This document shows, piece after piece, positions 40,099 through 56,084 of a stretch of 64,000 nt of DNA. Under the pieces are notes generated by a model. It saw only the letters and a program-made list of their open reading frames with translations. It had not been told where the DNA came from and made no database searches. A program made the position numbers and the translations under genes. How positions within the stretch are numbered: position 1 is the stretch's first letter; every line of letters starts with the position of its first letter. The stretch spans positions 192,001 through 256,000 of the forward strand of contig JAWVXD010000001.1 of the NCBI GenBank assembly GCA_033723415.1. The letters are read 5' to 3'. Source of the DNA: Sulfurospirillaceae bacterium (GTDB taxonomy: Bacteria; Campylobacterota; Campylobacteria; Campylobacterales; Sulfurospirillaceae).

Positions 40099-40131
40099 TT
40101 TCATACTTGTTTCATCTTCATCTTTTATAAT
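40099..40131 (+). promoter_or_regulatory. Tandem-repeat regulator box plus -10 (site 1, PepSY-TCS operon)
   Basis: TTTCA-tacttg-TTTCA-N11-TATAAT. Confidence 0.7.
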
Positions 40132-40176
40132 TTCACCAAGCGATAAAAAAATCGCGAATATTAGTAAGGAGATCAC

Positions 40177-40602
40177 ATGAAAAACAATGGATATTTTGTA
40201 AAAAGCATAGTTGCTTTAAGTTTAGTGGGAACATTGGCTATGGCTGAGGGGAATCATGAATCAAACGACTTTAGTGCAAAAGATCTGGGTATAAAAAGTT
40301 CGATTCAAATGAAGAAAGATACTAGCGAAGCTGATGAACGGCAAAGTGCTAAACTTGGCGTAAAAGATGTCATAGGCGCTCTAAATTCTAAATTTTCTGG
40401 TAAGATAACAAATATAAAGCTTGAGAACATTGATGGAAATCTAGTATATACTGCTGAGGTTTTAGGAAATGGTGACACAATCACTAATGTATTCGTAGAT
40501 GCAGGCAATGGGAAGATTTTGACTTCTAAATTAGACAAGAAGGATCATTCTGATGAGCAGGAAAAAAATCAAGAAAATCAACATGAAGATAATGAAGGTT
40601 AG
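40177..40602 (+). CDS. Secreted PepSY domain protein
   Basis: Signal peptide; GKITNIKLEN..LVYTAEV..VFVDAGNGKIL PepSY motif; acidic/His-rich tail. Confidence 0.85.
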   Translation: MKNNGYFVKSIVALSLVGTLAMAEGNHESNDFSAKDLGIKSSIQMKKDTSEADERQSAKLGVKDVIGALNSKFSGKITNIKLENIDGNLVYTAEVLGNGDTITNVFVDAGNGKILTSKLDKKDHSDEQEKNQENQHEDNEG

Positions 40603-40629
40603 ATATTTATATAATCAAGGCAACAGAGC

Positions 40630-41286
40630 ATGAAATTACTCATCATCGAAGATGATTCACATATCCTCTCTTTTTTAAAGAGAGGTTTGCTTGAAGACGG
40701 ATATATAGTGGAGGATTCAATGGATGGAGAAGAAGGGCTGTATATGGCTCTGCATAATAGCTATGATGTTATCGTGCTTGATTGGATGCTACCAGGTAAA
40801 AACGGTATCGAGATCATTGAATCTTTACGTAGTGAAAATATTAAAACTCCTATCATAATGTTGACGGCAAAAGATGATGTCAAAGACCGTGTCAACGGTC
40901 TTAGAAGCGGTGCTGATGATTATCTTCCTAAGCCGTTTTCGTATGAAGAACTTCTTGCACGGATCGAAGCATTACAAAGAAGAAATATTACACAGGGCGG
41001 CAATAACATAGAAGTCGCCGATATTGTGATCAATATAAACACAAAAACAGTCAAAAAAGATGAGAAAATCATAGATTTAACTGCCAAAGAATATGAGTTA
41101 CTGATGTTTTTGATAAAGCATAAAAATTCTACGGTTTCAAACACGATGATAGAAAACGGTCTTTGGGGTAATGAAGAGTATATTAACAGCAATGTGATCC
41201 AAGTGACGGTTTATCATCTTAGAAAAAAAATCGGCAAAAATATTATCAAAAGTTCCAGAGGATTAGGGTATAAAATTGAAATTTAA
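40630..41286 (+). CDS. OmpR-family response regulator
   Basis: IIEDD, VLDWMLP, MLTAKD, GADDYLPKPF; wHTH LTAKEY...RGLGY. Confidence 0.95.
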   Translation: MKLLIIEDDSHILSFLKRGLLEDGYIVEDSMDGEEGLYMALHNSYDVIVLDWMLPGKNGIEIIESLRSENIKTPIIMLTAKDDVKDRVNGLRSGADDYLPKPFSYEELLARIEALQRRNITQGGNNIEVADIVININTKTVKKDEKIIDLTAKEYELLMFLIKHKNSTVSNTMIENGLWGNEEYINSNVIQVTVYHLRKKIGKNIIKSSRGLGYKIEI

Positions 41287-42601
41287 AAGCTTAAAAACAA
41301 GAGTCTTGGTATGGTTTGGAACTATAGTGGCTTTACTATTGATTTTGTTTAGTATCTCTTTTTACTATTTTTACAATAAAAGCATAAATCTCTCTATTGA
41401 AACTAGATTATATAACCAGGCTGTTTATCTTCACGATAAGATACTACCAACTCTTCGTGAGAAGCAATTTATCAAAAATGATAGATTTTCATCGACTCAG
41501 ATCGCTATCATAAAAGATGGTAAAATCGTCAATCAGACACAAGAATTTACTCTTAGCAAATTTGCGAAATATATTGCTTCAAAAAAGTCGTTTATCACAA
41601 TAGACGGTAGTGAACATATAGACGCTGTGTATAACTTCAAATTCAAAGAACCGTATTCCGGAAATATTCTTTTATATCAGATAGGGATAGACGATAAGGC
41701 CGAAAATGTAGTAGATACACTTTTGGTCTTAGATCCTATGTTACTCATTGTTTTACTTCTTCTTGGGAGCAGGTTGATAGACAAGATTCTAGTACCTGTA
41801 AAAAGTGTGACAAATATAGCAAAAGATATCTCAGTTACCAACTTTTCCAAGAAGATACCGCTTCCCAAAGGTGAACATGAGCTAAAAGATCTGGTGGATT
41901 CTTTTAATGCTATGATCGAAAGATTAAAGGATGGATTTGAGAAGATCGACAGATTTAACAGTGATGTCTCACATGAACTAAAAACTCCCCTGACTGTGAT
42001 AAAGGGGGAAATAGAGTTATCCTTAAAACGAACGAGAAAAATCGAATATTACAAACAAAGTATGGGTGCTATTTCGGATGCGGCAAATCAAATACAACAT
42101 ATCATAGATGATCTATTATTCTTAGCAAAATTTTCTAAAGAAAATATCAAGACTACTTATAGGAAATGTGACCTAGATTCAATCCTGCTTAAAATAATAG
42201 ACAAATATGCGCCCTTGGCTAAAAATAAAAATATTAAGATACACATAGACAGATTTGAGCCGACTACTGCTTCTGTAAATCCGCTCTTGATAGAGAGAAT
42301 ATTCTCAAATCTATTAGACAATGCCATAAAATATACACATGACGAGAAGAATATCTATGTATCTCTTTATAAAGATAAAAAAGTGCATTTTATTATCAAA
42401 GACGAAGGTATTGGTATCCCTCAAAAGTTTTTATCAAATATAACCGATAGATTTTTTAGAGTTGATGAATCTCGGAGCAAGAGTGTAGAAGGCTTTGGTA
42501 TAGGTCTTTCCATTGTTGAGAACTGTGTGAATCTTCATGATGGAAAATTGAAAATAACTTCACTAGAAGATGAAGGAACGACTGTAGAAGTTATATTGTA
42601 A
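41276..42601 (+). CDS. Sensor histidine kinase (HAMP, HisKA, HATPase; CusS/CzcS-like)
   Basis: Two TMs, SHELKTPL, NLLDNAIKY, DEGIGI, RFFRVD, GFGIGL. Confidence 0.93.
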   Translation: MKFKSLKTRVLVWFGTIVALLLILFSISFYYFYNKSINLSIETRLYNQAVYLHDKILPTLREKQFIKNDRFSSTQIAIIKDGKIVNQTQEFTLSKFAKYIASKKSFITIDGSEHIDAVYNFKFKEPYSGNILLYQIGIDDKAENVVDTLLVLDPMLLIVLLLLGSRLIDKILVPVKSVTNIAKDISVTNFSKKIPLPKGEHELKDLVDSFNAMIERLKDGFEKIDRFNSDVSHELKTPLTVIKGEIELSLKRTRKIEYYKQSMGAISDAANQIQHIIDDLLFLAKFSKENIKTTYRKCDLDSILLKIIDKYAPLAKNKNIKIHIDRFEPTTASVNPLLIERIFSNLLDNAIKYTHDEKNIYVSLYKDKKVHFIIKDEGIGIPQKFLSNITDRFFRVDESRSKSVEGFGIGLSIVENCVNLHDGKLKITSLEDEGTTVEVIL

Positions 42602-42618
42602 TATTTTATTTTTAATGT

Positions 42619-42651
42619 TTTCATTTTTATTTCACTTTGATTTCTTAAAAT
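42619..42651 (+). promoter_or_regulatory. Tandem-repeat regulator box plus -10 (site 2)
   Basis: TTTCA-ttttta-TTTCA-N11-TAAAAT. Confidence 0.7.
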
Positions 42652-42696
42652 TTCTTCAAGCAAAAAAATGCTGAAATTTTATACAAGGAGATTTCA

Positions 42697-43482
42697 TTGG
42701 AAAATATGAAAAATATTGAAAATATGTTGTTGAGGGTGCCTGAAGTTGCATTATTGTTTTGGATCGTAAAGTCTCTTTCTACAACTGTCGGCGAGACTAC
42801 TTCTGATTTTTTTGTAAATTTAGGACTCGGGATGCCATTAGTCGCAATAATAGTCGCTTTAGCTATGGGTGTATTATTTTATATGCAATTTGGTAAGTAT
42901 AAAAAATATATACCTGTTATTTACTGGACTCTAGTCGTTTTGATGAGTATCGAAGGGACACTAATCACCGATATGTTGGTTGACACTATGGGTGTCAGTT
43001 TGATCACATTAACCATAGTATTTTCTATTGCTATGCTTATAGGATTTGCTCTTTGGCACAAGCGAGAGGGCACTTTGTCTATACATTCGATAAATACAAC
43101 TTCTAGAGAGGCTTATTATTGGGTTGTCATATTGATAGCTTTTGCACTGGGAACGGCTGCAGGCGATTTGATTTCTGAAAAACTCTCACAAGGTTATGGT
43201 GTTGCACTTGCTCTGTTCGCAGGTTTGATAGTGATCATCGCAGTTGCTCATTATTTGTTTAAACTAAACTCTATCCTTGCTTTTTGGTTGGCTTATATAT
43301 TAACAAGACCTCTTGGGGCATCATTGGGAGATTATCTTTCACAATCCCCAAAAGATGGAGGTTTGGGGTTTGGTTTGGGTATGATCAACATCGTATTCTT
43401 TTCTATAATAGTTGGTTCTGTATTTTATATGCATTCTCAAATAAACAAAAATATAGAGAATTTTGCTAAAATACGTCACTAA
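42697..43482 (+). CDS. COG4705 (DUF347 repeat) membrane protein
   Basis: VPEV..FWIVK..STTVGET..D, EGTLSIHSI, FALGTAAGD, FWLAYILTRPLGASLGD; TTG start after AAGGAG. Confidence 0.85.
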   Translation: MENMKNIENMLLRVPEVALLFWIVKSLSTTVGETTSDFFVNLGLGMPLVAIIVALAMGVLFYMQFGKYKKYIPVIYWTLVVLMSIEGTLITDMLVDTMGVSLITLTIVFSIAMLIGFALWHKREGTLSIHSINTTSREAYYWVVILIAFALGTAAGDLISEKLSQGYGVALALFAGLIVIIAVAHYLFKLNSILAFWLAYILTRPLGASLGDYLSQSPKDGGLGFGLGMINIVFFSIIVGSVFYMHSQINKNIENFAKIRH

Positions 43483-43510
43483 AAAATATTGATTAAAATA
43501 ATAGGATGGA

Positions 43511-44617
43511 ATGTATATGTTTGCAAAGTTAAGTATCGGTTTAATATTTGTGTTAATGTCTCAGGGTTTATTTGCCTATAATACAAATAGTATGAAAAAA
43601 AATTATCATGAAGATATAAATCTACCTGATACTATTCTCCATCCTTTAATCCAAGACAAAAAGATTATCAAGATAGAAGCAAAAACAAAACATAAGGCCA
43701 AATATCTAGGGATCAATTCTATCTATGTAAAAGAAAATATAGAGAATTTAGGCAAATATGTCTGGAATAAAAAAAGACAAGCTTATATAAGTCCTTTAAA
43801 TCGAAAAGAGCTTATCTTTGAAGCGAAAAAGATATATTTGATTTCTCAGGCAAAATATGATGATATGAAAACTATTAAGAATGATTTGGCGAAAATAAAC
43901 AAAAAAAATCTCTCAGATCATGAATTGAAAGATCTATTTAGTTCTTATAATCAATTGTCTATAAAAGAAAAAGAGTTAATGTTTTGCAGTGATCTAGTAG
44001 ATACCTTGATAAAAAATAGACTAATTTATTTAAAAAATAAAGAGTACTTTCTTTTGATCGATAAGAACAAGCAAAGAGGATATATATTTTCATTTCATAA
44101 ATCAAACAAAAGTTTAGAATACATAGGAAGCGATCATATCTCTACGGGAAATCCAAGTTTTAACAGTAGAAACGATAGGTATTTTGAGACTCCTATCGGT
44201 ATTATAAATAGAGCTAGATATAGACGAGGTGATTGGATATCTATAAAGAAAAATGCATTTAAATACGGCGAGAGAAAAGATAGGATCTATTATCTTGGAA
44301 AATATCTGATTCCTATAGCTGATAAGTCAAAGTTTAAGAGAGAAGTACATCTGGCTATACACTCTACAACTCCGATTGATGCCATGCTTTTAGGACATAA
44401 AGTTTCAAAAGGATGTATTAGAATTAGTAGAGAGTTAAACAAGATATTAAATAAAAGTGCAATTATAGATGGAAAAAATGGAAAATACGTGATTATTATT
44501 GATTCTAGCTTACCGATAAAAGAAAATTTAAAAAAGCTGGAAAAATTCTCAAAAGAAAAAATTAAACATAAAAGAAACAAATACGCAATGATTTCAGGTA
44601 ACGCTCAGAACGACTAA
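43511..44617 (+). CDS. L,D-transpeptidase (YkuD-like) family protein
   Basis: Signal peptide; ISTG..FETPIG and AIH-x14-SKGCIR catalytic motif. Confidence 0.72.
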   Translation: MYMFAKLSIGLIFVLMSQGLFAYNTNSMKKNYHEDINLPDTILHPLIQDKKIIKIEAKTKHKAKYLGINSIYVKENIENLGKYVWNKKRQAYISPLNRKELIFEAKKIYLISQAKYDDMKTIKNDLAKINKKNLSDHELKDLFSSYNQLSIKEKELMFCSDLVDTLIKNRLIYLKNKEYFLLIDKNKQRGYIFSFHKSNKSLEYIGSDHISTGNPSFNSRNDRYFETPIGIINRARYRRGDWISIKKNAFKYGERKDRIYYLGKYLIPIADKSKFKREVHLAIHSTTPIDAMLLGHKVSKGCIRISRELNKILNKSAIIDGKNGKYVIIIDSSLPIKENLKKLEKFSKEKIKHKRNKYAMISGNAQND

Positions 44618-44752
44618 TACTAACACTTAATCTTATATTGACTTTAGTAAAGTTTGTGATATAATTTGTATGTACTCGCAATTTTGTAGATTTTGAATAT
44701 AATATTTCATTATGAAATATGAAATCTGCAAGAACGTTAAAAAGGATTTGCG

Positions 44753-47095
44753 GTGACAAAAATTATACATAAGCTTGTAGATTATTTTTATATTTTTATC
44801 ATAGCATTTATTTGGGCTGTTGCTATTGTTTCTATACTTTTTATGAGCTATCATAGGCAAAGTAAGAAATTCGATTACTCCGATGACAACATTATAACGC
44901 TAGAAATGGCATATAAAGCCAGTATCAATAAATACTCTTTTCTAGCAAGATATATTTTCCGCCACTCCATAAATAATGAAGAAATCTTATCTATTTTCCA
45001 AAAAGGCACCAAAGCAAAAGGTAGTCTGAAAAAGGTATATAGACAGCAGTTGTATGAGAAACTAAATCCATTATATGAAAAATTGAAAGCAGAAGGTATA
45101 GGCCAGCTACAATTCATTACAAAAGACAATATAAGCTATATCAGATTTCACAAACTTAGCAAAAGCGGCGATGATCTGTCAAAATATAGAGAAACAATAA
45201 AAATAGCGAATAGAGACAATAGGATAGTCAGTGGTTTTGAAGCAGGCAGAATAGTGACAGGGTTTAGAAATGTGTTTCCATTGAATTATCAAAATAAACA
45301 TCTAGGATGTGTAGAGATAGGTGTTACTACTAAAGCTATTATAGGAGCAATCTCCCAATTAGATCCAAGACGAGAATACAGTTTTATATTACGAAAAGAT
45401 GTCGTTTTCCCAAAATTACTTGAAGAAGAAAAACCTTTCTATAAAACGTCAACTATTGATTCAGATTTTGTTTTTGAGGATTATGCAAAAATTTCGCCTA
45501 AGTCTGTAAAAATACAATCAAAAACTACAAATAGAATCAATGAAAAACTGATGGAAGACAAAAAACTTCATGCAGCACTGGAACAAGGAAGAAAATTCTT
45601 TAAATTTGCTAAGGTTGATAATACTTTTTATGATGTTTCCTTTGTCCCTATGCTTGGTGTAAATGCAGATGTAGAAGGTTATCTTGTCGCTTATAAGAAA
45701 AGTGAAAATATACCTATAATCTTGAGTAATTTTTCACTTATTGTGGGCATAATAATATCTCTTATGCTCATACTTACAATCTTAGTCTTACTGCTTAAAA
45801 GCAATTATCATACTATCCAATACCAAAAAAGATGGTTTAAATCTATCAATGATAGCTTAGGTGAGGGCATATATGTTATGGATATTAATGCAAACATAAC
45901 CTATGTAAATCCATTGGCCTGTGAGATATTGGGTTATTCAAAAGATGAATTGATAGGTAAAAATGCCCATTATATATTTCATTCTCATTATTTAAATAAT
46001 AATGTATCACTGCGTGATTGCCCGATTTTAAAAGGTGTTTCAGAAAATATGAAGTTGATAAGTGAAAAAGAGTATTTTACGTGCAAAGACGGGCATATAA
46101 TCCCTGTGCAAATCAACAGCAGACCAACTTTGAAAAATGGTAAAATATTAGAAATAGTAACAGCTTTTAACGACATAAGCGAAAAAAGAAAACTAGAAGA
46201 AAAAAATGATCTATTGCTTAAAGCTTTAGAGGTGAGTTCTGACACTGTAATGATCACAGACTTAGATGCTACAGTACAATGGGTAAATCCTGCTTTTGAA
46301 AAATTAACAGGATACGGTATCAAAGAGATAATTGGCAAAAATCCTAAAGATCTGATCAATTCAGGTAAACAGACAAAAGAGTTTTATGAATCCATGTGGA
46401 ACACTATCTTAGATAAGAAAACATGGAACGGAGAATTAATAAATAGAAGAAAAGACGGCAGTCTGTATTATGAAGAACTTACAATAACTCCTATTTTTGA
46501 CGTTCATGACAACATTAAGCACTTTGTCGCTATAAAGCAAGATATAAGTAAAAGAAAAAAAATAGAAAGCAGTTTACAGCATGTTGCACTTCATGATGTT
46601 TTAACCGGATTACCAAATAGAAGATTTTTAATATTGCATTTGGAAAAAGTTATATCTGGAATGATCGAATTTGATAAATTCATTGCAATACTTTTTTTAG
46701 ATTTAGATGGGTTTAAAACTTTAAATGACAATAATGGACATGATGCAGGTGATGAATTGCTTGTACAAGTATCGCAAAGGCTTCAAGAGAGTATAAGAAA
46801 GCAAGATCTTGTAGCCAGGTTAGGTGGTGACGAGTTTGTGATTGTTTTAGACGGTTTATCAAATGATCTGCAAAAAGCAACAGTAAATGCAAAAGAAATA
46901 GCCGAAAAAATAAGACAAAATATAGCTTTGCCTTTTAAACTGAAAAAGGTAACTTACGAGATAACTGCAAGTATAGGAATATGCCTTTTTAACGACAATA
47001 CAAAAGACGTCAATGAAAGACTGGAAGAAGCTGATAATGCTCTTTATAACTCAAAGGAAAATGGAAAAAATATAATCAGTATTTTTGATGATTAA
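44753..47095 (+). CDS. Diguanylate cyclase (Cache sensor, PAS, PAS, GGDEF)
   Basis: Two TMs around a Cache-like domain; two PAS/PAC; DLDGFK, RKQD I-site, intact GGDEF. Confidence 0.9.
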   Translation: MTKIIHKLVDYFYIFIIAFIWAVAIVSILFMSYHRQSKKFDYSDDNIITLEMAYKASINKYSFLARYIFRHSINNEEILSIFQKGTKAKGSLKKVYRQQLYEKLNPLYEKLKAEGIGQLQFITKDNISYIRFHKLSKSGDDLSKYRETIKIANRDNRIVSGFEAGRIVTGFRNVFPLNYQNKHLGCVEIGVTTKAIIGAISQLDPRREYSFILRKDVVFPKLLEEEKPFYKTSTIDSDFVFEDYAKISPKSVKIQSKTTNRINEKLMEDKKLHAALEQGRKFFKFAKVDNTFYDVSFVPMLGVNADVEGYLVAYKKSENIPIILSNFSLIVGIIISLMLILTILVLLLKSNYHTIQYQKRWFKSINDSLGEGIYVMDINANITYVNPLACEILGYSKDELIGKNAHYIFHSHYLNNNVSLRDCPILKGVSENMKLISEKEYFTCKDGHIIPVQINSRPTLKNGKILEIVTAFNDISEKRKLEEKNDLLLKALEVSSDTVMITDLDATVQWVNPAFEKLTGYGIKEIIGKNPKDLINSGKQTKEFYESMWNTILDKKTWNGELINRRKDGSLYYEELTITPIFDVHDNIKHFVAIKQDISKRKKIESSLQHVALHDVLTGLPNRRFLILHLEKVISGMIEFDKFIAILFLDLDGFKTLNDNNGHDAGDELLVQVSQRLQESIRKQDLVARLGGDEFVIVLDGLSNDLQKATVNAKEIAEKIRQNIALPFKLKKVTYEITASIGICLFNDNTKDVNERLEEADNALYNSKENGKNIISIFDD

Positions 47096-47127
47096 AAAGC
47101 TAATTTATACTTTTCCGATATATTTAC

Positions 47128-47156
47128 TTGACATTAAATAAAATTTTCTTTATAAT
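47128..47156 (+). promoter_or_regulatory. Consensus promoter of metY-Rrf2-cysK
   Basis: TTGACA-N17-TATAAT. Confidence 0.75.
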
Positions 47157-47229
47157 TCTTTTTATATTATAACTAAGAGAAGTAAAATATGTATTATTTT
47201 ACATACACTTAGTTAAAAAAGGAATTTAA

Positions 47230-48492
47230 ATGACACAAGAAACATTAGCTATACATAACGGATATGACAAAAATGATTTTGGAACTATGGCAGTTCCTTT
47301 ATATCAAACTACTGCTTATGATTTTGGCAGTGCAGAGACAGCTGCAAATAGGTTTGCATTGAAAGAATTGGGACCAATATATACAAGATTAAACAATCCT
47401 ACAACTGATATTTTTGAAAGTAGAATGGCTGCACTGGAAGGCGGAGAAGCTTCAATAGCAGCTGCAAGCGGACAAGCTGCTATATTCTTTGCAGTCGCAA
47501 ATCTTGCAGAAGCCGGAGACAATATTATAGTGGCGAAGAAGATTTATGGCGGTGCTACCACATTATTGACGCACACACTAAAAAGATTTGGTATTAGTGC
47601 GAAAACTTTTGATAGTGACAATGCCGATGATCTAGAATCTTTGATAGATGATAAAACAAAAGCAGTATTTTTTGAATCTTTATCAAATCCTCAGATAGCT
47701 ATACCAAATATTGAGAAGATCGTTGAAATAGCTAATAAGCACAATATAGTAACTATTTGTGATAATACTGTCGCAACGCCTATTTTATTTCAACCTATAT
47801 CTTATGGTGTTGATGTTGTCGTTCATAGTGCCAGCAAGTATATTACGGGACAAGGATTGGCCATAGGCGGTGTAGTAGTAGCTAGAAATAATCTCAATGA
47901 AAAGTTGATCGGCAATTCTAGATATCCTCAATTTAATGAACCTGATGAAAGTTATCATGGTCTGGTTTATGCCACTATACCTCTTCCTCTTTTTACTCTG
48001 AGAATCAGACTTTCATTGATAAGAGATATAGGTGCTACTATCGCTCCATTTAACGCTTGGCTTTTGATACAAGGTCTAGAAACATTGTCTGTAAGGATAA
48101 AGCAGCATTCAAAAAATGCACTTGAAGTTGCAAGATATTTGAAATCTCATCCAAAGGTAAAAAGTGTAAATTATCCTGGTTTAGAAGGTGATGTACAAAA
48201 TGAAAAAGCAAATAAATATTTTAAAGAGGGTATGACATCAGGACTTCTTAGCTTTGAAGTCGAAGGTTTGGATTTTGCAAAAAATATATTGAACAACACA
48301 AAAATATTTGCTGTAGTTACAAACATCGGAGATACCAAGTCTATCATCACGCATCCAGCTAGCACTACGCATATGCAAGTACCTGCAGATGAATTAGAAA
48401 AATCGGGAATCAGCCAAGGACTTATCAGACTTAGTGTAGGACTGGAAAGTAGTGAAGATTTAATAGCCGATTTAAAACAAGCCATAGGTTGA
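47230..48492 (+). CDS. metY: O-acetylhomoserine/O-acetylserine sulfhydrylase (MetY)
   Basis: YTRLNNPT, VHSASKY (PLP Lys), NIGDTKS..HPASTTH, IRLSVGLE. Confidence 0.9.
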   Translation: MTQETLAIHNGYDKNDFGTMAVPLYQTTAYDFGSAETAANRFALKELGPIYTRLNNPTTDIFESRMAALEGGEASIAAASGQAAIFFAVANLAEAGDNIIVAKKIYGGATTLLTHTLKRFGISAKTFDSDNADDLESLIDDKTKAVFFESLSNPQIAIPNIEKIVEIANKHNIVTICDNTVATPILFQPISYGVDVVVHSASKYITGQGLAIGGVVVARNNLNEKLIGNSRYPQFNEPDESYHGLVYATIPLPLFTLRIRLSLIRDIGATIAPFNAWLLIQGLETLSVRIKQHSKNALEVARYLKSHPKVKSVNYPGLEGDVQNEKANKYFKEGMTSGLLSFEVEGLDFAKNILNNTKIFAVVTNIGDTKSIITHPASTTHMQVPADELEKSGISQGLIRLSVGLESSEDLIADLKQAIG

Positions 48493-48496
48493 TCTT

Positions 48497-48910
48497 ATGG
48501 CTCTAATATCTACAAAAGGGATGTACGGACTCAGTGCGATGTATGCATTGTCAAATATAGAATCTGATAAACCTACTCAAATCAAAGATATTTCAGAAAA
48601 GGCAGAAGTACCTCAAAACTATCTTGAACAACTTTTGGTTACTTTAAAAAGAGCAAACTTAATCACAAGTGTCAGAGGTGCTCATGGCGGATACTTCTTG
48701 GCTAGAAATGCTGATGATATTTTGATAAAAGATATACTTGTTGCACTTGAAGGAAATTTAAGTATTGTTGAATCAGACATCCAAAATCCTGTTTTGAAAC
48801 TATTTTATGATGAAAGTAACAAAAAATTAGACGATATTTTCAATATCCCTCTCTCAAAGCTTCAAGAATATGAAGAGTTGCTTAGAGGCCAAATACACTA
48901 TATTATATAA
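48497..48910 (+). CDS. Rrf2 family regulator (CymR-like)
   Basis: ISTKGMYGL, YLEQLL, SVRGAHGGY; no Cys residues; located between metY and cysK. Confidence 0.85.
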   Translation: MALISTKGMYGLSAMYALSNIESDKPTQIKDISEKAEVPQNYLEQLLVTLKRANLITSVRGAHGGYFLARNADDILIKDILVALEGNLSIVESDIQNPVLKLFYDESNKKLDDIFNIPLSKLQEYEELLRGQIHYII

Positions 48911-48921
48911 AAGGATATATT

Positions 48922-49842
48922 ATGAATTATGCACAAAATGTAACCGGACTCATAGGAAATACGCCACTTATACGGTTAAATATCCCATCTGAAAAAAGTG
49001 GAACAACGATATTAGGAAAATGTGAATTCTTAAATCCAACACATTCTGTAAAGGATAGAATCGCTTATAACATGATAAAAAAAGCTTTTGAAGATAAATC
49101 GATCACTAATGATTCCGTGATAATTGAACCTACTAGTGGAAATACAGGTATAGGATTAGCTTCAGTTTGTGCAAGTTACGGGTTGAAATTAATACTGACA
49201 ATGCCAAGTTCTATGAGCATAGAGCGAAGAAAACTTTTATCTGCTCTTGGGGCTGAACTTGTTCTTACAGAACCACAGTTTGGGATGCAAGGTGCGATCA
49301 ATAAAGCTGAAGAAATAGCCAAAAATACACCAAACTCTTTTATACCTCAACAATTTGCAAATGACGCAAATCCGCAAATGCATATGAAAACAACAGCACA
49401 AGAAATTTGGAAAGACACAGATGGCAAAGTGGATATATTTGTTGCAGCGGTAGGAACAGGCGGAACCGTTATGGGCGTTGGAACAGCATTAAAAGAAAAG
49501 AATCCAAACATTAAAGTATATGCCGTTGAACCAGATGTTTCACCGGTTCTATCAGGCGGGAAAGCAGGTCCTCACAAGATACAAGGCATAGGAGCAGGGT
49601 TTGTTCCAAAAGTATTGGATACAAATGTATATGATGAAGTTATTAAAGTTAGCTATGAAGATTCGGTAATTGTTTCTAGGGAATTGGCTAAAAATGAAGG
49701 TTTGCTTGTAGGTATAAGTGCAGGTGCCAATGTTTTTGCAACTGAACAAATAGCTTCAAGACCTGAGAATAAGGGAAAAGTCATAGTAACTGTCCTTTGT
49801 GATACAGGAGAGAGATATCTGAGCTCAGGGCTTTACGAATAA
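48922..49842 (+). CDS. cysK: Cysteine synthase A
   Basis: SVKDRIA, EPTSGNTG, GTGGT, HKIQGIGAG, DTGERYLS. Confidence 0.96.
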   Translation: MNYAQNVTGLIGNTPLIRLNIPSEKSGTTILGKCEFLNPTHSVKDRIAYNMIKKAFEDKSITNDSVIIEPTSGNTGIGLASVCASYGLKLILTMPSSMSIERRKLLSALGAELVLTEPQFGMQGAINKAEEIAKNTPNSFIPQQFANDANPQMHMKTTAQEIWKDTDGKVDIFVAAVGTGGTVMGVGTALKEKNPNIKVYAVEPDVSPVLSGGKAGPHKIQGIGAGFVPKVLDTNVYDEVIKVSYEDSVIVSRELAKNEGLLVGISAGANVFATEQIASRPENKGKVIVTVLCDTGERYLSSGLYE

Positions 49843-49855
49843 ATACATATATGAT

Positions 49856-49888
49856 TTTCATTTAAATTTCATTTTCAGACCTTATAAT
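49856..49888 (+). promoter_or_regulatory. Tandem-repeat regulator box plus -10 (site 3, PAP2 operon)
   Basis: TTTCA-tttaaa-TTTCA-N11-TATAAT. Confidence 0.7.
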
Positions 49889-49911: not shown

Positions 49912-50481
49912 ATGGAAAAGCTAAATAAATTTTTATTTTTATATGTCAACCAGTTCGCGGGACATCATCATAATCTAGATCTTTTGATGATAGCTTTTGC
50001 GGAATTTACTCCATATATTTTTATGGTTTTATTGTTATATTTGTGGTTTAAGAACAAAAAAGAAGAAGGCTTATTTGCCGGTTATGCAGCACTCTTGGCT
50101 CTTTCATTAAATCAGATTATAGGCTTATTTTACTTTCATCCACGACCATTCATGGAAAATTTAGGACACAGTCTTATATCTCATAATCCTGATAACTCTT
50201 TTCCTTCCGATCATGTCAGTTTCACTCTAAGTATCGCTTTTGTGTTTTTGACTTTTAAAACAACAAGAACATTGGGTATAATTACTTCGATCTTAGGATT
50301 GATGTGTGGAATTTCAAGAGTTTATAGTGGCGTTCATTGGCCATTTGATGTCATGGGTTCAATTATCATTTCAATCTTTTCGATTTTTGTTATTTATAAG
50401 TTAAATACTCCATTATTATGGTTAAATAGATTTATAATAAACACATACTATAAAATCATAAAGAAGGAATTTTTTGCTTAG
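49912..50481 (+). CDS. PAP2 family undecaprenyl-diphosphate phosphatase (YbjG/BcrC-like)
   Basis: [23 protein letters not shown]. Confidence 0.9.
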
Positions 50482-51082
50482 TGAAATTGTAAATTGGATC
50501 GTAAGTACTGTCGGTACTTTGGGCTATACAGGTATTGTTGTCATGATGTTTTTGGAGAGTTCATTCTTCCCTTTTCCCAGTGAAGTAGTTATGATCCCGG
50601 CTGGTTATTTGGCTTCTCAGGGTGAAATGAGCTTGACTTTGGTTATCTTCTGTGGGATTTTTGGGGCTATACTTGGTTCATTGTTTAATTATTATTTAGC
50701 ATATAAATTCGGAAGAATCGCTATTTTAAAATTTGGAAAATATTTTTTCATGGATGAAAACAGGCTAATGAAAATAGAAGATTATTTTTATAGGCATGGG
50801 CATATATCTACTTTTATAGGAAGACTCATACCAGGAGTGAGGCAGTATATATCCTTACCTGCAGGACTTGGAAAGATGGATTTGAGATTGTTTAGCATCT
50901 TTACTGCACTCGGTGCCGGAATATGGGTTATCGTGTTGGTATTGTTAGGGTATTTTATAGGACAAAATCAGGCACTTATCAAAGAGTATTTACACTTGAT
51001 TATGGCAGTTTTGGCGCTATTATTGTTAATTATTACAATACTTTATGTGAGAAAAGTAAAAAAAGATCATGCTCAAAAATAA
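50474..51082 (+). CDS. DedA family membrane protein
   Basis: [19 protein letters not shown] and [16 protein letters not shown]. Confidence 0.92.
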
Positions 51083-52868
51083 AAAGCTACTTTTTGCTAT
51101 AAGCTCATTAGGTCTAGGTCATGCTACCAGAACTATGGCAGTTGTAAATCACTTTAAAAAAGATAATGAGATAACGATTATATCTTATGGCAATGCTTTG
51201 AATTTTTTAAAAAAAGAATTAAGTGGCGACAATATAGAATTTATACCATTTGTTGATTATCCAAATTTAGAGAGAGGGAAGGGGCTTAGTTTTTATTTTT
51301 ATCTTCTTATTGATCTGATAAAAACAAATTTGATCATCAGAGAAGAGAGAAAATATACAAAAGAGATCGAAAAAAGATTTGATTTTATATTTTCAGACGG
51401 AAGATACGGGATCTTTTCAAAAAAGATACCATCATTTTTGTTAAGTCATCAAATATCATTTATCCCTCCAAATGGATTGTCTGCATTTTCTTTTTTTGCA
51501 GATTTGGGCAATTACCTATATTTTAAAAATTTCAATGAGCTATTTATTCCTGATTTTGAAAATTTTGAAAATTCTTTGGCAGGAAAGTTATCTCATCCAA
51601 AATTTTTAAAGTACCTAAATTATGAATTTATAGGACTTCTATCTTCTTATGATAAAAAAGAGATACCAGAAGATATAGATTATCTTTTTGTTATAAGCGG
51701 GTATTTAAAAGAGCATAAAGACAACTTTATATCAAAGTTGATAGAAAACTCCAAAAAGCTAAAGGGATCTAAAGTTTTTGTATTAGGAGACACCAGTCAT
51801 GATGATATACAAACTCTAGAAGAATATGACATAACGATCTATCCGTCTGTATCTAGTGACATACGAGAAGAATTTTTTGCGAGAGCCAAGGTCATAATTT
51901 CTAGGACAGGGTATACGACTATTATGGATTTGGTGGAATTAGACAAAAAAGCCATCCTTTTTCCGACTCCTAATCAAAGCGAACAAGAGTATTTGGCAAA
52001 ATTTCATATGCATAAGAATAATTTTGTTATCTGCGAAGATAGTCAAAATTTTGACTTGCAGGAGCTGATCTTAAAATTGCCAATCACAAAGCCTTATATA
52101 CCTGAATCTAAAACTAAAGATTCATTAGAAAAGATAGAAAAAAAAGCTGAAGAGTACTTTATCCATAACTTTTTTTCTATTATTATCCCTGCATACAATG
52201 AGGCAAAATACATATCAAAAACTTTAGAAAAACTATCCGTCTTGGAGTACGACAATTTTGAGATTATCATAGTAGAAAATGGCTCTAGCGATAATACCTT
52301 TAAGATCGCTTCATCCTACAAAGAAACAATACCTAAATTGAAAGTGTATCAAAGTCCTAAAGGTGTATCAAAAGCTAAAAATGTTGGATTAAGCAAGGTC
52401 AGTGAAGATTCTAATTGGGTTATTTTTTTAGATGCAGACACTGAACTTGAGAGCAGATTTTTAAAAGATTTAAACAATTATTTAAATAAGAACAAAAACA
52501 ATAATCTCTGTGTCGGCACTTGTGAGATACTGGCATCTGACTCAAAAACTCTATATTCAAAACTATGGTTGAAATTTTATGATCTGGGTCATAAATTGAC
52601 TCAAACTTCATATTCAATGCAAATTGCAAAAACAGATATAGCACAAGGTATAAAATTTGATGAAGAACTTAACTATTCAGAAGATCTGAAATTTATAAGA
52701 AACATGCAAATTTTTGGAGAATTTTTCTTTTTTAATACAAAAGAAGTACTCACTTCTGTGAGAAGATTTGAAAAAGACGGTTATCTTAGAACACTCATAT
52801 ACTGGAATATACAAGCATTTACTCCTGAATTTTTGAAAAAAAATAAAAACTATAAATCTATTAGGTAA
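51069..52868 (+). CDS. Fused glycosyltransferase: N-terminal GT-B (GT28-like) and C-terminal GT2
   Basis: [23 protein letters not shown]; then [26 protein letters not shown]. Confidence 0.82.
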
Positions 52869-52870
52869 TT

Positions 52871-54271
52871 ATGGATTTCTCATTTCTTGATAAACTCATA
52901 AGTTTTTTGATTGATTACAAAGAGATTGCATATACGGTACTGTTCTTTGGTTCAATGTTTGAAACTATCATCGGATTTTCATTTTTTATTTATGGAGAAT
53001 TGTTCTTCTTAGCAGGAAGTATTATGGCAGGTATGGGTATTTTAAATATCTGGGAAGTTATAATAGTCCTGTATGTCGGAGGGATATTAGGAGATAGCAC
53101 AAGCTATTTTTTGGGAGTAAAATATGGACTTAATGTTTACAATAAATTTAAGAATGTTAAATTTTTAAATCGTTTTATAAATGAAAAAAATTATGATAAA
53201 GGTGTGAAGTTTTTTCAAAAAAGAGGTGCTATGAGTCTGTTCTTTGCCAGACTTTTGGGACCTATTTCTTGGATCACTCCATTTATCGCGGGTATTTACA
53301 AACTCGATTATAAAAAATTCTTACTTTACAATATCCCAGGTGTTATCATAGGAATAGGGCAATTTATAATAATAGGCTATTTTTTTGGTAGACATTTCGA
53401 TCTGGTTCTTAAAATTTTCTCAACTTATATCCTGATCGTTGCATTTGTATTGATATGCATCATATTTTTATACTATTACCTCAAGAAGAGAAAGCTTTTA
53501 AGTCAAATAAAACAGATTTTTATAGAAGATCGAAAACGAATTATTAGTTTTATTGCCAAAAATTTCTTCTTGACAAGTGCAGTTTTATTGTTGATCTATC
53601 TACTCTTTTTATTTTTTATTTTTTTCACGGATGCTGATAAAGAAGTGAAACCTATGCATCATCCTTTGCTTATCTCTATGAACATAAATCAATGTAAAAA
53701 TTTCCAACTTTACTATAAAACCGACAAAAAAAATATTATCCAGCCTATCAATGTAATATTGGAGACAAATCTAGGACCTTCTGACATATTTGATAAAAAT
53801 TGGATCAAAAATAAGATATTTGATATCAACGATATATCATTTCTTGAATATATAAGATTGTTAAAAGAAAAAACACCTCCTATAAGTTCTCTTTATTTTG
53901 ATGGATATCCGCAAGATTATGCTTATCAATATAAATCAAATTCTATTCAAAAGAGGCAACACATAAGACTTTGGAGATTTGTAAAAAAGCCTTTTTATTA
54001 CGTCTATTATGCCTCAATAACATACGATGACGGATTGAGTTTTAATTTTTATAATTACTTCTACTCTCCGATTCACAGGATTGATAAAAATATTGACAAG
54101 AGTAGAGATTTCTTTTATAAATATATGCGGCAAAGAAAAGATTTGAATGTAACATGTAGTTATATACAAACACAATGCGCAATAAGCAAGATATTAAATA
54201 ATGATGAGCTTAGTGACGAACAACCGTATTATAGTGACGGGAAAGTATTGTTATGCAAGATTTCTAAATAG
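52871..54271 (+). CDS. DedA domain fused to LssY C-terminal-like domain
   Basis: N-terminal DedA (GE..LAG, LGDSTSY, ARLLGP); C-terminal QPINVI, RQHIRLW, ASITYD, HRIDKNIDKSRD, DGK. Confidence 0.78.
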   Translation: MDFSFLDKLISFLIDYKEIAYTVLFFGSMFETIIGFSFFIYGELFFLAGSIMAGMGILNIWEVIIVLYVGGILGDSTSYFLGVKYGLNVYNKFKNVKFLNRFINEKNYDKGVKFFQKRGAMSLFFARLLGPISWITPFIAGIYKLDYKKFLLYNIPGVIIGIGQFIIIGYFFGRHFDLVLKIFSTYILIVAFVLICIIFLYYYLKKRKLLSQIKQIFIEDRKRIISFIAKNFFLTSAVLLLIYLLFLFFIFFTDADKEVKPMHHPLLISMNINQCKNFQLYYKTDKKNIIQPINVILETNLGPSDIFDKNWIKNKIFDINDISFLEYIRLLKEKTPPISSLYFDGYPQDYAYQYKSNSIQKRQHIRLWRFVKKPFYYVYYASITYDDGLSFNFYNYFYSPIHRIDKNIDKSRDFFYKYMRQRKDLNVTCSYIQTQCAISKILNNDELSDEQPYYSDGKVLLCKISK

Positions 54272-54338
54272 TTTAGAATTTTTATTGTAAATATTTAGTT
54301 ATAATCGAAGGTATTGAAACCTTCTAGAAGGAATCGTC

Positions 54339-54938
54339 ATGAAAGATTTTATTTTAAAAATCACAGCAGCTAAATGGAACTACTATTTTAGCCTTGTTAC
54401 AGATGGCATGACAGGTCTTGTGTTTCTTATATTGAGTTTTCATTTTTCAGAAGACTTGTGGTCCAGTATCGCACTGTTTGTAGTTGGCGTTGTTTGTTTT
54501 ACTTTTATAGAATACGCAGTACACGCTTGGTTATTTCATAAAAATCATTTTCTAAAAGTATTTATAGAAGGACATGCGCATCATCATCAAAACCCTTTCA
54601 GCTATGATGCCATGCCTTTTTTTGTCTCCGCTCTTATGGGGCTCTTAGCAGTTGAATTACTTTCACACGTCATGCCACACCGTGATGCTTTTGCATTTAT
54701 AGGAGGTCTTGCTATGGGGTATTTTAACTATGGCTTAACACATCACATAATGCACAGAAAAGAATTTTCAAGCCCATATTATAAGTATCTACAAAAATTT
54801 CATTTTGTTCATCATAAAAAACCAAAGATGAATCATGGTATTACTACTGATATCTTTGATAGGATATTTGGCACCTATTACCAATGGAGTGAAGAAGACT
54901 TAAAGGGCATGGAAAAGCTCAAAAGAATCAAAAAATAG
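54339..54938 (+). CDS. Fatty acid hydroxylase / sterol desaturase family di-iron enzyme
   Basis: His boxes EYAVHAWLFH, HAHHH, THHIMH, HFVHH; NHGITT..FDRIFGT. Confidence 0.88.
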   Translation: MKDFILKITAAKWNYYFSLVTDGMTGLVFLILSFHFSEDLWSSIALFVVGVVCFTFIEYAVHAWLFHKNHFLKVFIEGHAHHHQNPFSYDAMPFFVSALMGLLAVELLSHVMPHRDAFAFIGGLAMGYFNYGLTHHIMHRKEFSSPYYKYLQKFHFVHHKKPKMNHGITTDIFDRIFGTYYQWSEEDLKGMEKLKRIKK

Positions 54939-54950
54939 CAAAGAAGCATT

Positions 54951-56084
54951 TTGAAAAATATCGATAAAAATATCATATACTTAGGTTGGGTCAGTTTTTT
55001 TACCGATATGGCTTCTAATATGGTTACAACACTTTTACCTATCTTTATCATCTATGTTTTACATGAAGGCGTCGATAAGCTTGGGATCATCATAGCGATA
55101 GCTACTTTCATATCCTATATCTTCAGGATAGTATTTGGTTACCTCAGCGATAGATTTCAGATCGTCAAGCCTTTTGTTGTTGCAGGTTATTTCATCTCTG
55201 CTATAGCTAAACCATTGATGGCATTTTCCGGCACGTATTTGGCAGTAGCAACTCTAAGAGGTGCAGAGAGGATGGGTAAAGCGATCCGTAGTGCCTCAAA
55301 AGATTCACTTATAAGCTCATACGCAAAAGAAAAAGCGGATGGTAAAACGTTTGGTTTTCACAAGATGATGGATATATCAGGAGAGTTATTTGGTGCTTTG
55401 ATCATCTTTGTCATTTTTATGTTCTTTGCAAAAAGCGAAGTTGCCATACGGGATATCTTTGCATTTACCTTGATCCCCGGACTCATGGCCACAATGATAG
55501 CTTATGTCTTAGTAAAAGACACTCCTTATAAACATAAATCCAAAAATATTGTTGTTAACAAAGAAGATTTGAAACTTTTACCGATTCTTTTTATATACTT
55601 TGGTTTTGTTTTCTTTGTGATGAGCGAGCAGTTTTTTATCTTAAAAGCAAAAGAGTTAGGATATGAACTCAGTACTATCTCCCTTTTTATAATGGTCTTT
55701 ACATTCACTCAAGCAGTCGTGAGCTACTACGGTGGAATCTTTAGCGACAAATTTGGGATTTATAAAAGTCTGGTAGCCTCTTTTATGTTTGCAATCTTAT
55801 CAATCATGACATTAGAAATAAATCTTTGGATTTCTTTTATATTTTTAGGTCTTTTTACTGTTATAAGCTTAAATGCCATTCGGGCGGATATATCCAAAAA
55901 TGCTATATCAAAAGGTTTTATTTACGGTATCTTTTACGCAGGCGTAGCTATCTTTAGTTCATTAGGAGCATTAATTGTAGGCTTTATCTGGAAGATCTAC
56001 GGATTTGATACGGTTGTAATATTTAGCGAAGCCGGAATGATTATTATGCTAATATTGTTAATGCTCTCAATAAAGAAAATTTAA
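54951..56084 (+). CDS. MFS transporter
   Basis: LGWVSFFTDMAS, GYLSDRF, ERMGKAIR, FGFHKMMD; multiple TMs. Confidence 0.88.
   Translation: MKNIDKNIIYLGWVSFFTDMASNMVTTLLPIFIIYVLHEGVDKLGIIIAIATFISYIFRIVFGYLSDRFQIVKPFVVAGYFISAIAKPLMAFSGTYLAVATLRGAERMGKAIRSASKDSLISSYAKEKADGKTFGFHKMMDISGELFGALIIFVIFMFFAKSEVAIRDIFAFTLIPGLMATMIAYVLVKDTPYKHKSKNIVVNKEDLKLLPILFIYFGFVFFVMSEQFFILKAKELGYELSTISLFIMVFTFTQAVVSYYGGIFSDKFGIYKSLVASFMFAILSIMTLEINLWISFIFLGLFTVISLNAIRADISKNAISKGFIYGIFYAGVAIFSSLGALIVGFIWKIYGFDTVVIFSEAGMIIMLILLMLSIKKI

Follow-up and report, generated by a model that had tools for sequence, protein, structure and literature searches.

A direct repeat at a fixed distance from the -10 box and the predicted envelope regulon of a PepSY-regulator-kinase system in a Sulfurospirillaceae bacterium

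Modules in which a PepSY-domain protein is encoded together with a response regulator and a sensor kinase are widespread, and the sensing of envelope damage has been shown in one species (PMC12714742). According to the available part of that report, DbfQRS of Vibrio cholerae (VC1637-1639) stands among DbfQRS-like modules that include PA2659-PA2658-BqsRS of Pseudomonas aeruginosa and occur across phyla; DbfQ binds the sensor domain of the kinase DbfS and drives it towards phosphatase activity, and outer-membrane damage (lipopolysaccharide mutants, polymyxin B, thymol) activates the system, with peptidoglycan biosynthesis genes going up. The promoter of the DbfQRS operon depends on phosphorylated DbfR, 540 genes change, and the same part of the report defines neither a DbfR binding site nor a direct regulon. 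Here we describe, in a stretch of 64,000 nucleotides from a Sulfurospirillaceae bacterium (GCA_033723415.1, contig JAWVXD010000001.1, positions 192,001 to 256,000; the window), a direct repeat, TTTCA-N6-TTTCA, which is followed after 11 nt by a -10 box in front of three transcription units, one of them a PepSY-regulator-kinase operon. An earlier note on this DNA had proposed that the regulator of that operon activates all three units; as far as sequence comparison reaches, this interpretation is supported.

Two-component systems of the OmpR type offer the other points of reference. The PHO box, in the available part of PMC4415409, is made up of two 11-nt units, each with seven conserved and four less conserved positions, to which effector domains bind head-to-tail. 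Closer to the present organism, DccRS and PhosSR of Campylobacter jejuni have OmpR-type regulators and small regulons of periplasmic and membrane proteins, as given in the available part of PMC9449129.

The repeat and its promoters

The pattern TTTCA-N6-TTTCA-N11-TAWAAT, written TTTCANNNNNNTTTCANNNNNNNNNNNTAWAAT, was searched on both strands of the window and of the whole genome (G000: 2,426,994 bp in 17 contigs, 34-35% G+C, the window being C1:192001-256000; genomes are denoted by G, contigs by C and fetched loci by L numbers). In the window it is found at the three positions named in the earlier note (Table 1), all on the + strand, and nowhere else, and none of 100 dinucleotide-preserving shuffles of the window holds any match. 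The set of three promoters proposed in the note is thereby confirmed for the window, but it gains a fourth member outside it, since one further exact match lies on another contig. Four matches in the genome compare with 0.076 expected on both strands from a word-frequency model (0.026 in the roughly 335 kb of noncoding-like DNA), giving a Poisson probability of 1.3e-6 for four or more; the pattern is rare. All four sites are intergenic and on the coding strand, with 23-45 nt from the -10 box to the start codon. At promoter 2 this distance is counted to a TTG start, the next ATG being at 54 nt.

What is enriched is the repeat combined with a -10 box at exactly 11 nt, and not the repeat alone. 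Bare TTTCA-N6-TTTCA occurs 36 times in the genome where 34 occurrences are expected; with the repeat spacing held at N6 there is no match at any other distance to the -10 box in the range of 3-21 nt, and if N11 is held instead, repeat spacings of 0-15 give, apart from N6, a single match at 0, a single one at 13 and no others. Because the pattern was derived from the three window sites after they had been seen, independent support comes from the fourth site and from the relatives. A 33-nt weight matrix built from 18 sites of relatives, this genome being excluded, gives the four sites 32.7-35.2 bits, the next-best matches scoring 21.1 bits (within an open reading frame of 629 aa) and 20.3 bits. 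Outside the motif block the four promoters do not resemble one another, and hence are not copies of any longer repeat. The 20.3-bit match (C3:277731-277763; L062:5732-5764), considered as a candidate fifth site, has TATCA as its first half-site and lies 28 nt before a gene for a 942-aa FAD-oxidase/Fe-S (D-lactate-dehydrogenase-like) protein, with a TRAP transporter and another two-component system adjoining; it is probably unrelated.

Across the relatives the element consists of two 11-bp units, TTTCATTTTCA TTTCATTTTCA, placed 10-11 nt from the -10 box. The consensus of the 46 distinct repeat sites that score above 21 bits in the fetched loci is TTTCATTTTCATTTCATTTTCA, and most exact matches in relatives read so; positions 1-6 and 12-17 are conserved at 87-100% and positions 7-11 at 57-89%. 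A -10-like hexamer stands at N11 in 35 of these sites and at N10 in four more (39/46 together), counts that are partly due to ascertainment, the N11 figure being inflated because many sites were found by the exact pattern. Among the 16 sites that were found without requiring a -10 box, eight have it at N11 and three at N10, and another two carry, judged by eye, a TATAAT or TAATAT hexamer at N11. No TTGACA-like -35 hexamer is present at the four motif promoters, whereas neighbouring promoters have one (TTGACT-16-TATAAT at 44638 for a GGDEF gene; TTGACA-17-TATAAT at 47128 for a Cys/Met-PLP gene): the organism thus uses -35 boxes, and at the motif promoters the repeats would replace them. The element therefore shares with the PHO box its two tandem 11-nt units of about seven conserved and about four less conserved positions, and with class-II activator sites the position of the repeats at the -35 place and the fixed short distance to a sigma-70 -10 box.

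Two side observations concern the same promoters. An extra TTTCA/TTTCT word begins at the last base of the -10 box, at 40131-40137 and 42651-42657 (TATAATTTCACCA, TAAAATTTCTTCA), 21 bp past the second repeat, and by our own reading it recurs in about nine of the 46 listed sites, including those of L014, L016, L048, L049 and L010; it could be an added low-affinity half-site or start-site context. In addition, CAAGC-(A)7 occurs in the leaders of both promoter 1 and promoter 2.

Table 1. Motif promoters and the genes they precede; positions are those of the window unless a contig is named.
Feature	Position	Strand	Remarks
Promoter 1	40099..40131	+	units TTTCATACTTG TTTCATCTTCA; -10 TATAAT at 40126-40131; 45 nt to start codon; 32.7 bits
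PepSY-domain protein, small, secreted, 141 aa	40177..40602	+	PF03413 at residues 60-116; signal peptide
OmpR/PhoB-family response regulator, 218 aa	40630..41286	+	Pfam: receiver domain and winged helix
Sensor histidine kinase, 441 aa	41276..42601	+	Pfam: HAMP, HisKA, HATPase; first transmembrane segment (TM1), periplasmic part of ~80 aa, second segment (TM2)
Promoter 2	42619..42651	+	units TTTCATTTTTA TTTCACTTTGA, then TAAAAT; 45 nt to start codon; 35.0 bits; begins 18 nt past kinase stop codon; serves DUF347-YkuD
DUF347 (COG4705) polytopic membrane protein	42697..43482	+	PF03988, 155 bits, 4 repeats
YkuD-type L,D-transpeptidase-like protein, secreted	43511..44617	+	PF03734, 24.8 bits (cut-off 23.4); signal peptide
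Promoter 3	49856..49888	+	units TTTCATTTAAA TTTCATTTTCA, then TATAAT; 23 nt to start codon; 35.2 bits; serves PAP2-DedA-glycosyltransferase operon
Operon 3 as a whole	49912..56084	+	Pfam and NCBIfam
PAP2 phosphatase, YbjG-like	49912-50481	+	Pfam; NCBIfam 96 bits (cut-off 229)
DedA, UptA-like	50474-51082	+	Pfam; NCBIfam 120 bits (cut-off 250)
GT-B+GT2 fusion glycosyltransferase	51069-52868	+	Pfam
DedA-LssY_C	52871-54271	+	Pfam
Fatty-acid hydroxylase-family protein	54339-54938	+	Pfam; 67-nt gap upstream
MFS transporter	54951-56084	+	Pfam; 12-nt gap upstream
Fourth exact match, outside the window	C9:55258-55290 (L001:5259-5291)	+	44 nt to gene for 142-aa exported Haem_bd (PF14376) protein with CxxCH motif

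Distribution of the repeat and of the regulator-kinase pair

Among 41 relatives the exact pattern has 31 matches in 17 genomes, and a control with the pattern reversed has four. Within the genus, 10 of the other 13 genomes carry it; in the family (61 genomes) there are 28 matches in 16 genomes, against seven for the reversed control. One genus of 28 genomes, in none of which a kinase orthologue was found, has two matches only, both unlike the consensus and so at background level.

Full-length orthologues of the kinase are 36-71% identical and are set apart from a separate paralogue tier at about 30-33%. Fifteen orthologous loci were scanned, 16 counting this one, and a site precedes the operon that contains regulator and kinase in 12 of the 16, that is, in G000 and 11 further loci. 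Behind the site, the pair is preceded by the PepSY gene in G000, G013 and G005, by PAP2 in G010, by PAP2, a further gene and DedA in G002, G003 and G008 (spacing N10), by a sulfatase-fold protein in G022 and G024, and in the two copies of G029 by a PEMT-type methyltransferase (with PAP2 and DedA following the kinase) and by YceI and Metallophos, respectively. The weak 22.3-bit site of G011 (L051:4612-4644) has a -10 box that ends 6 nt before the regulator ATG, so that its transcript, if the site is used, would be leaderless. The other four loci have no such site: in G006 a 29.4-bit site stands before the neighbouring glycosyltransferase/DedA-LssY/YdjC operon, in G012 one of 29.3 bits lies just past the Haem_bd gene that directly follows the kinase, G019 has none within 14 kb, and the locus of G028 is on a 6-kb contig. 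Throughout the family (an orthologue being taken here as E <= 1e-70) the exact motif occurs in 10 of the 15 genomes with a kinase orthologue versus 6 of the 46 without; related genomes are not independent samples, and no P value is therefore attached.

Beyond the family the pair is scattered. In a phylum sample of 301 genomes, for which five candidates per genome were scored so that some orthologues may be missed, an orthologue was found in 11 genomes over six families, and in none of the 90 and 124 genomes (214 in all) of the two most sampled families. Of eight more distant loci from other families, four have repeat sites beside the pair that score 21-30 bits: in G300 a site leads to DUF347 on one side of the regulator-kinase pair and another to PAP2 on its other side, in G351 a site is followed by PAP2, a further gene, DedA, regulator and kinase, and in G230 and G273 sites lie beside the pair. 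As a control, the 22-nt matrix run over both strands of G000 (2.43 Mb) yields six matches above 21 bits, namely the four regulon sites and two others, and three above 23 bits, all of them regulon sites. A kinase-based search for related loci returned three close relatives at 47-48% identity, metagenome-assembled genomes labelled Campylobacterales or Sulfurimonadaceae.

Sites are kept at orthologous loci, which bears out the expectation of conservation. In G013, the closest syntenic relative, they stand before PepSY (36.3 bits), DUF347 (28.1 bits, first half-site ATTCA), PAP2 (40.0 bits) and the Haem_bd orthologue, and in G005 before the YkuD orthologue (34.9 bits). The first downstream open reading frames were assigned by Pfam, for 22 proteins and then for 13 more. 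Sites precede the PepSY gene in G002, G005 and G013, directly precede the regulator gene in G010, and precede PAP2 in G001, G002, G003, G005 (two), G008, G010, G011, G013, G300 and G351. Further sites stand before UppS in G010 (TIGR00055, 282 bits, above cut-off); before Metallophos phosphoesterases in G008 and G010, with others within operons in G002 and G029; before SAM methyltransferases that resemble N-methyltransferases of phospholipids or ornithine lipids (78 and 64 bits, below cut-offs) in G002, G005 and G010; before a PEMT/ICMT-type methyltransferase and an ArnC-like GT2 in G029; before sulfatase-fold proteins like LtaS or phosphoglycerol transferases in G022 and G024; before YceI in G011 and G029; and before a small cytochrome c in G011, while a weaker site precedes an RND efflux operon in G005. 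Matches of a background-like kind are found in G003 (DNA methyltransferase, 125 nt), G009 (hydrolase, 109 nt), G004, G028 and G038, and at one site of G034. PAP2, DedA, DUF347, YkuD, Haem_bd, glycosyltransferase and MFS genes adjoin the regulator-kinase pair in varying orders. Membership of the regulon thus appears to shift across relatives around what looks like a constant theme, the supply and recycling of lipid carriers together with the remodelling of lipids, glycolipids and peptidoglycan.

Some genomes hold two paralogous regulator-kinase copies: G010 (C19, C125), G029 (C23, C30) and G351 (C1:37575, 51588). Most duplicated pairs have a TTTCA-type site of their own and a differing first gene (PAP2, UppS after the kinase, YceI, PEMT-type methyltransferase), the exception being the PepSY copy of G351, which has no site above 15 bits. 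With what seems to be a single half-site in common, the duplicated systems pose a question of cross-talk.

The predicted circuit and its alternatives

The gene calls on which the earlier note had relied (PepSY, OmpR-type regulator, kinase, DUF347/COG4705, YkuD, PAP2, DedA, glycosyltransferase) were all confirmed by Pfam. Besides its single PepSY domain, the PepSY protein carries a conserved IKSSIQ motif and, at the C-terminus, an acidic tail rich in Asp, Glu, Asn and His; its named homologues are found in records of Sulfurospirillum, Poseidonibacter and Lebetimonas. Tails of the family are of this low-complexity composition and variable in length, some ending in E-x-W-Y-K-F-W, and these acidic, His-containing tails suggest cation binding. 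As in DbfQRS-like modules, the gene for a small secreted protein that has one PepSY domain immediately precedes those for regulator and kinase, an arrangement also present in G013, G005, G019 and G351, and by analogy with DbfQ this protein is a candidate modulator of the kinase.

The regulator scores below cut-off on all its best NCBIfam models (heavy-metal subfamily 202.1 bits against 279.2, PmrA 189.5 against 330, PhoB 180.7 against 296.2) and likewise on HprR, which places it outside the PmrA/BasR (NF007928) and PhoB (TIGR02154) equivalogs. Its nearest relatives in the PDB are DrrD (1.5e-50) and BasR/PmrA (4e-46), the latter including complexes with DNA and RNA polymerase. Across the 15 orthologues compared there is hardly any change in the recognition helix, SNVIQVTVYHLRKK, and all 18 other OmpR-type regulators compared in this genome have a different one; the nearest of these, at 51% overall identity, is a paralogue on contig C11, whose helix, SSNIIIVLIHHLRSKISK, is similar.

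An AF2 model of kinase residues 1-175 (pLDDT 92.6) has TM1, a small alpha/beta domain at residues 74-139 and TM2. Foldseek against the PDB gave no match to the sensor at E <= 1e-3, the weak matches being a WalK model (5e-3), CzcS 5gpo (1e-2) and PhoQ 1yax (6e-2), and these suggest a generic PDC/PAS-like sensor only. Of 1.84 billion cluster representatives, 54 are related to the sensor domain at E <= 1e-3. No His, Cys or Met of the periplasmic domain is conserved in an alignment of the 15 orthologues; what is conserved is a juxtamembrane acidic patch (D-D-x-x-E-N/D) before TM2. The best NCBIfam match of the kinase is the heavy-metal subfamily, at 230.7 bits and below the cut-off of 292.55; neither by score nor by metal-ligand residues does the pair belong to that subfamily (TIGR01386 for the kinase, TIGR01387 for the regulator).

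As to the targets, the predicted regulon of this genome comprises four promoters, those of PepSY-regulator-kinase, DUF347-YkuD, PAP2-DedA-glycosyltransferase-DedA/LssY and the Haem_bd protein. The YkuD protein has its catalytic motif, His...SKGCIRI, intact. An Atlas search with the DUF347 protein returned DUF347 clusters only and no functional lead. In operon 3 the first four genes overlap or abut, and the hydroxylase-family and MFS genes probably belong to it as well; an MFS gene is linked to PAP2, DedA and the kinase also in G029 and G233. The NCBIfam matches of this operon all stay below the equivalog cut-offs, those of PAP2 and DedA included, and the substrates of these two are accordingly putative. 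UppS makes undecaprenyl diphosphate and YceI is a polyisoprenoid-binding family; the recurring targets UppS, PAP2, DedA and YceI point to the polyprenyl-phosphate carrier cycle. The fused glycosyltransferase, DedA-LssY_C, the hydroxylase and the N-methyltransferase-like, LtaS-like and Metallophos proteins point to change in envelope lipids and glycans, and the YkuD target suggests that peptidoglycan is also involved.

Two neighbours of these units may be mentioned. The MFS gene of operon 3 is separated by 32 nt from hypF (hydrogenase maturation carbamoyltransferase; 56117-58333), which lies downstream. Between units 2 and 3 lies a dCache-PAS-PAS-GGDEF diguanylate cyclase (44753-47095), kept in G013, which has its own canonical promoter (TTGACT-16-TATAAT with TG, 44638-44665) and is therefore outside the regulon by motif; the DbfRS pathway of V. 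cholerae acts via cyclic di-GMP.

Taken as a whole, these data are probably best explained if the adjacent OmpR/PhoB-family regulator binds the repeat, which would serve class-II activation of the four promoters. We infer that the kinase phosphorylates the regulator and that the phosphorylated dimer, presumed to be the binder, would sit head-to-tail on the two 11-bp units (TTTCATnnnnn, consensus TTTCATTTTCA); these would stand in for the -35 box, with 10-11 nt between them and the sigma-70-type -10 box downstream, and the bound dimer, acting like the class-II activators PhoB and PmrA, would recruit RNA polymerase. Promoter 1 would then presumably be the site at which the regulator positively autoregulates its own PepSY-regulator-kinase operon, and the secreted PepSY protein would probably bind and restrain the periplasmic domain of the kinase, by analogy with DbfQ and DbfS.

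Several observations weigh against this explanation. The matrix scores and spacing counts are partly circular, many sites having been ascertained by the exact pattern and the matrix built from such sites, and adjacency and co-occurrence in related, non-independent genomes are circumstantial. The family genomes G006, G012, G019 and G022 have the orthologue and lack the exact pattern; G006, G012 and G022 do have near-consensus sites close to the two-component system, in which the first half-site departs from TTTCA, the -10 box reads TACAAT, or both. Six family genomes have the exact pattern with no orthologue found: in G009, G018, G046 and G051 the matches are background-like or have non-regulon neighbours, and the assemblies of G001 and G004 are fragmented (90-92% complete), so that an orthologue may lie in DNA missing from the assembly. 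Near the orthologues of G344, G352, G233 and G028 and near the PepSY copy of G351, no site exceeds 15 bits. The sensor domain, lacking conserved His, Cys or Met and having weak fold matches, gives no pointer to a specific ligand. Finally, this genome has 27 OmpR-family (PF00486) matches, and these give some scope to a different binder, such as the C11 paralogue with its similar recognition helix, another OmpR-type regulator or a protein outside that family, for which the neighbouring system would be merely a target. That G001 and G004 have the motif, although a kinase orthologue was not found in them, would fit this, yet over at least five families the motif tracks the orthologous pair (upstream at 12/16 loci, flanking at 4/8 distant loci), the genus with 0/28 orthologues has background-level matches only, kinases of the C11 tier (about 30-33%) occur in G009 and G017, genomes without consensus-type sites, and contig C11 itself has no matrix match above 12 bits; we consider another binder unlikely.

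It would likewise be surprising if the adjacent regulator bound the repeat mainly to repress, or in a dual role, by occluding the -35 region, the units being on when it is dephosphorylated. The site does cover the -35 position, where bound proteins can block RNA polymerase, and the extra TTTCA-like word right after the -10 box (about 9/46 sites) could be a repressing half-site; however, 39/46 sites (in part by ascertainment) keep to 10-11 nt from the -10 box, promoters without a -35 box among constitutive neighbours that have one are the signature of PhoB/PmrA-type class-II activation, and in the available part of PMC12714742 it is the phosphorylated regulator that activates the DbfQRS promoter. 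A somewhat better case, though still an unlikely one, can be made for a Pho box and a regulon of phosphate-sparing lipid remodelling, in which the adjacent regulator could still be the binder, as a PhosSR-like second Pho system. Targets such as PAP2, Metallophos, glycosyltransferases, lipid methyltransferases and LtaS-like enzymes resemble those of known phosphate-sparing lipid remodelling. The unit TTTCATn is moreover one base off the Escherichia coli PHO core CTGTCAT (PMC4415409, available part). This genome, however, has a canonical pstSCAB-phoU-phoB-phoR cluster at C8:16401-22736, and in front of pstS stands another repeat (TTGTTAC-N4-TTGTTAT, about 10 nt, TATAAT; C8:16300-16400), with no TTTCA-type site above 12 bits. 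This pstS repeat, of 11-bp period, is probably the PHO box of the organism, like the TTTCA sites in architecture and different in half-site. A canonical Pho regulon has its box at pstS and its regulator encoded with pst/phoU, and the TTTCA system has neither; the regulator reaches 181 bits on the PhoB model (cut-off 296), and no phosphate transporter or alkaline phosphatase is among the targets examined. That the matches are a chance or compositional by-product of T-rich promoter DNA could be suspected from the AT-rich genome, from the bare repeat occurring at its expected frequency and from a pattern defined after three sites had been seen, but this is refuted by the word-frequency model (4 sites against 0.076 expected, and none at other -10 spacings), by the fourth site and the 27 matches in relatives (reversed control 4), which are independent of the definition, and by the sites conserved before orthologous genes.

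For the signal that the kinase of this predicted class-II circuit would respond to, envelope or outer-membrane damage or cationic stress is our tentative first choice and metal cations are possible; limitation of lipid carrier or phosphate is doubtful, and a signal of another kind improbable.

Comparison with known systems

In a literature search we found no link of a PepSY two-component system, of PAP2/DedA or of the motif to Campylobacterota, the two-component regulons retrieved for the phylum being those of Campylobacter and Helicobacter only. The suggestion that the system is not described in Campylobacterota stands as far as that search reaches, but the kind of module was described in 2025, as DbfQRS (PMC12714742). 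What is new is the operator sequence, the compact carrier-lipid and envelope regulon, and the occurrence in free-living Campylobacterota, for which this would be the first predicted envelope-stress circuit. The predicted circuit would itself be a standard class-II OmpR-family circuit, and no concept is changed by it. Sequence alone has here yielded a sharp, testable operator and a predicted four-promoter regulon, and it places DUF347, the fused glycosyltransferase and DedA-LssY proteins in a functional setting.

In architecture the element resembles the PHO box and the PmrA/BasR box, which in the available part of the sources (PMC4415409; PDB 4s04/4s05, 8jo2) are head-to-tail 11-bp units replacing the -35 box in class-II manner. 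The half-site here is TTTCAT, unlike the CTGTCAT of PhoB, and the genome carries a separate PhoBR with its own box. The PmrA box, YTTAAK, is also unlike TTTCAT. PmrA regulon targets modify envelope lipids, as those predicted here would, but the regulon of this genome contains no arn or eptA genes.

Heavy-metal systems of the CzcRS/SilRS/CopRS type (TIGR01386/TIGR01387) are the best NCBIfam match for both regulator and kinase, with the weak fold match to CzcS in addition. The scores below cut-off and the lack of conserved His, Cys or Met in the periplasmic domain set the present pair apart from them, and among its targets no metal efflux ATPase or CDF transporter was seen, a single RND pump with a weak site (G005) being the nearest approach. 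In Frankia, according to the available part of PMC4531530, three UppP-DUF347 operons are lead-induced; PbrB-type phosphatases are a further point of comparison. An undecaprenyl-diphosphate phosphatase and DUF347 would be under one control here as well, and this analogy keeps a metal signal in play.

DccRS and PhosSR, likened by description, belong to the same phylum and have an OmpR-type regulator and a small regulon, as here. Wosten and co-workers, in 2006 and 2010, reportedly gave the DccR and PhosR boxes as WTTCAC-N6-TTCACW and GTTTC-N6-GTTTC; if so, these are direct repeats of 11-bp period with a TTC core, like the present motif. To our knowledge the operons of DccRS and PhosSR contain no PepSY gene. 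No kinase orthologue having been found in the 90 and 124 genomes of the two most sampled families, the present system is probably a different one. A functional analogy can be drawn to SigM of Bacillus subtilis, which controls undecaprenyl-phosphate homeostasis (BcrC, UptA): in both, an envelope-stress regulator would raise a PAP2 phosphatase and a DedA flippase, to which G010 adds UppS, but here the regulator is a two-component system, there an extracytoplasmic function sigma factor in a Gram-positive host.

The closest known system is DbfQRS, which, on the description in the available part of PMC12714742, has in common with the present one the order PepSY-regulator-kinase, an envelope output and an autoregulated promoter, shown there and predicted here; the small four-promoter regulon defined by sequence and the narrow sensor family (54 representatives) are differences. 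A bolder proposal, which we put forward as speculation, is that the repeat marks the first-defined direct output of a DbfQRS-like module, a compact stress regulon for lipid carriers and envelope lipids that would combine the supply and recycling of undecaprenyl phosphate (UppS, PAP2, DedA, YceI), a switch to L,D-transpeptidase cross-linking, change in lipids and glycolipids, and a role of DUF347 in the handling of carrier lipid or cation-phosphate. If such a lipid-carrier stress output were conserved, it would explain why modules of this kind respond, across phyla, to outer-membrane damage, polymyxin and metals.

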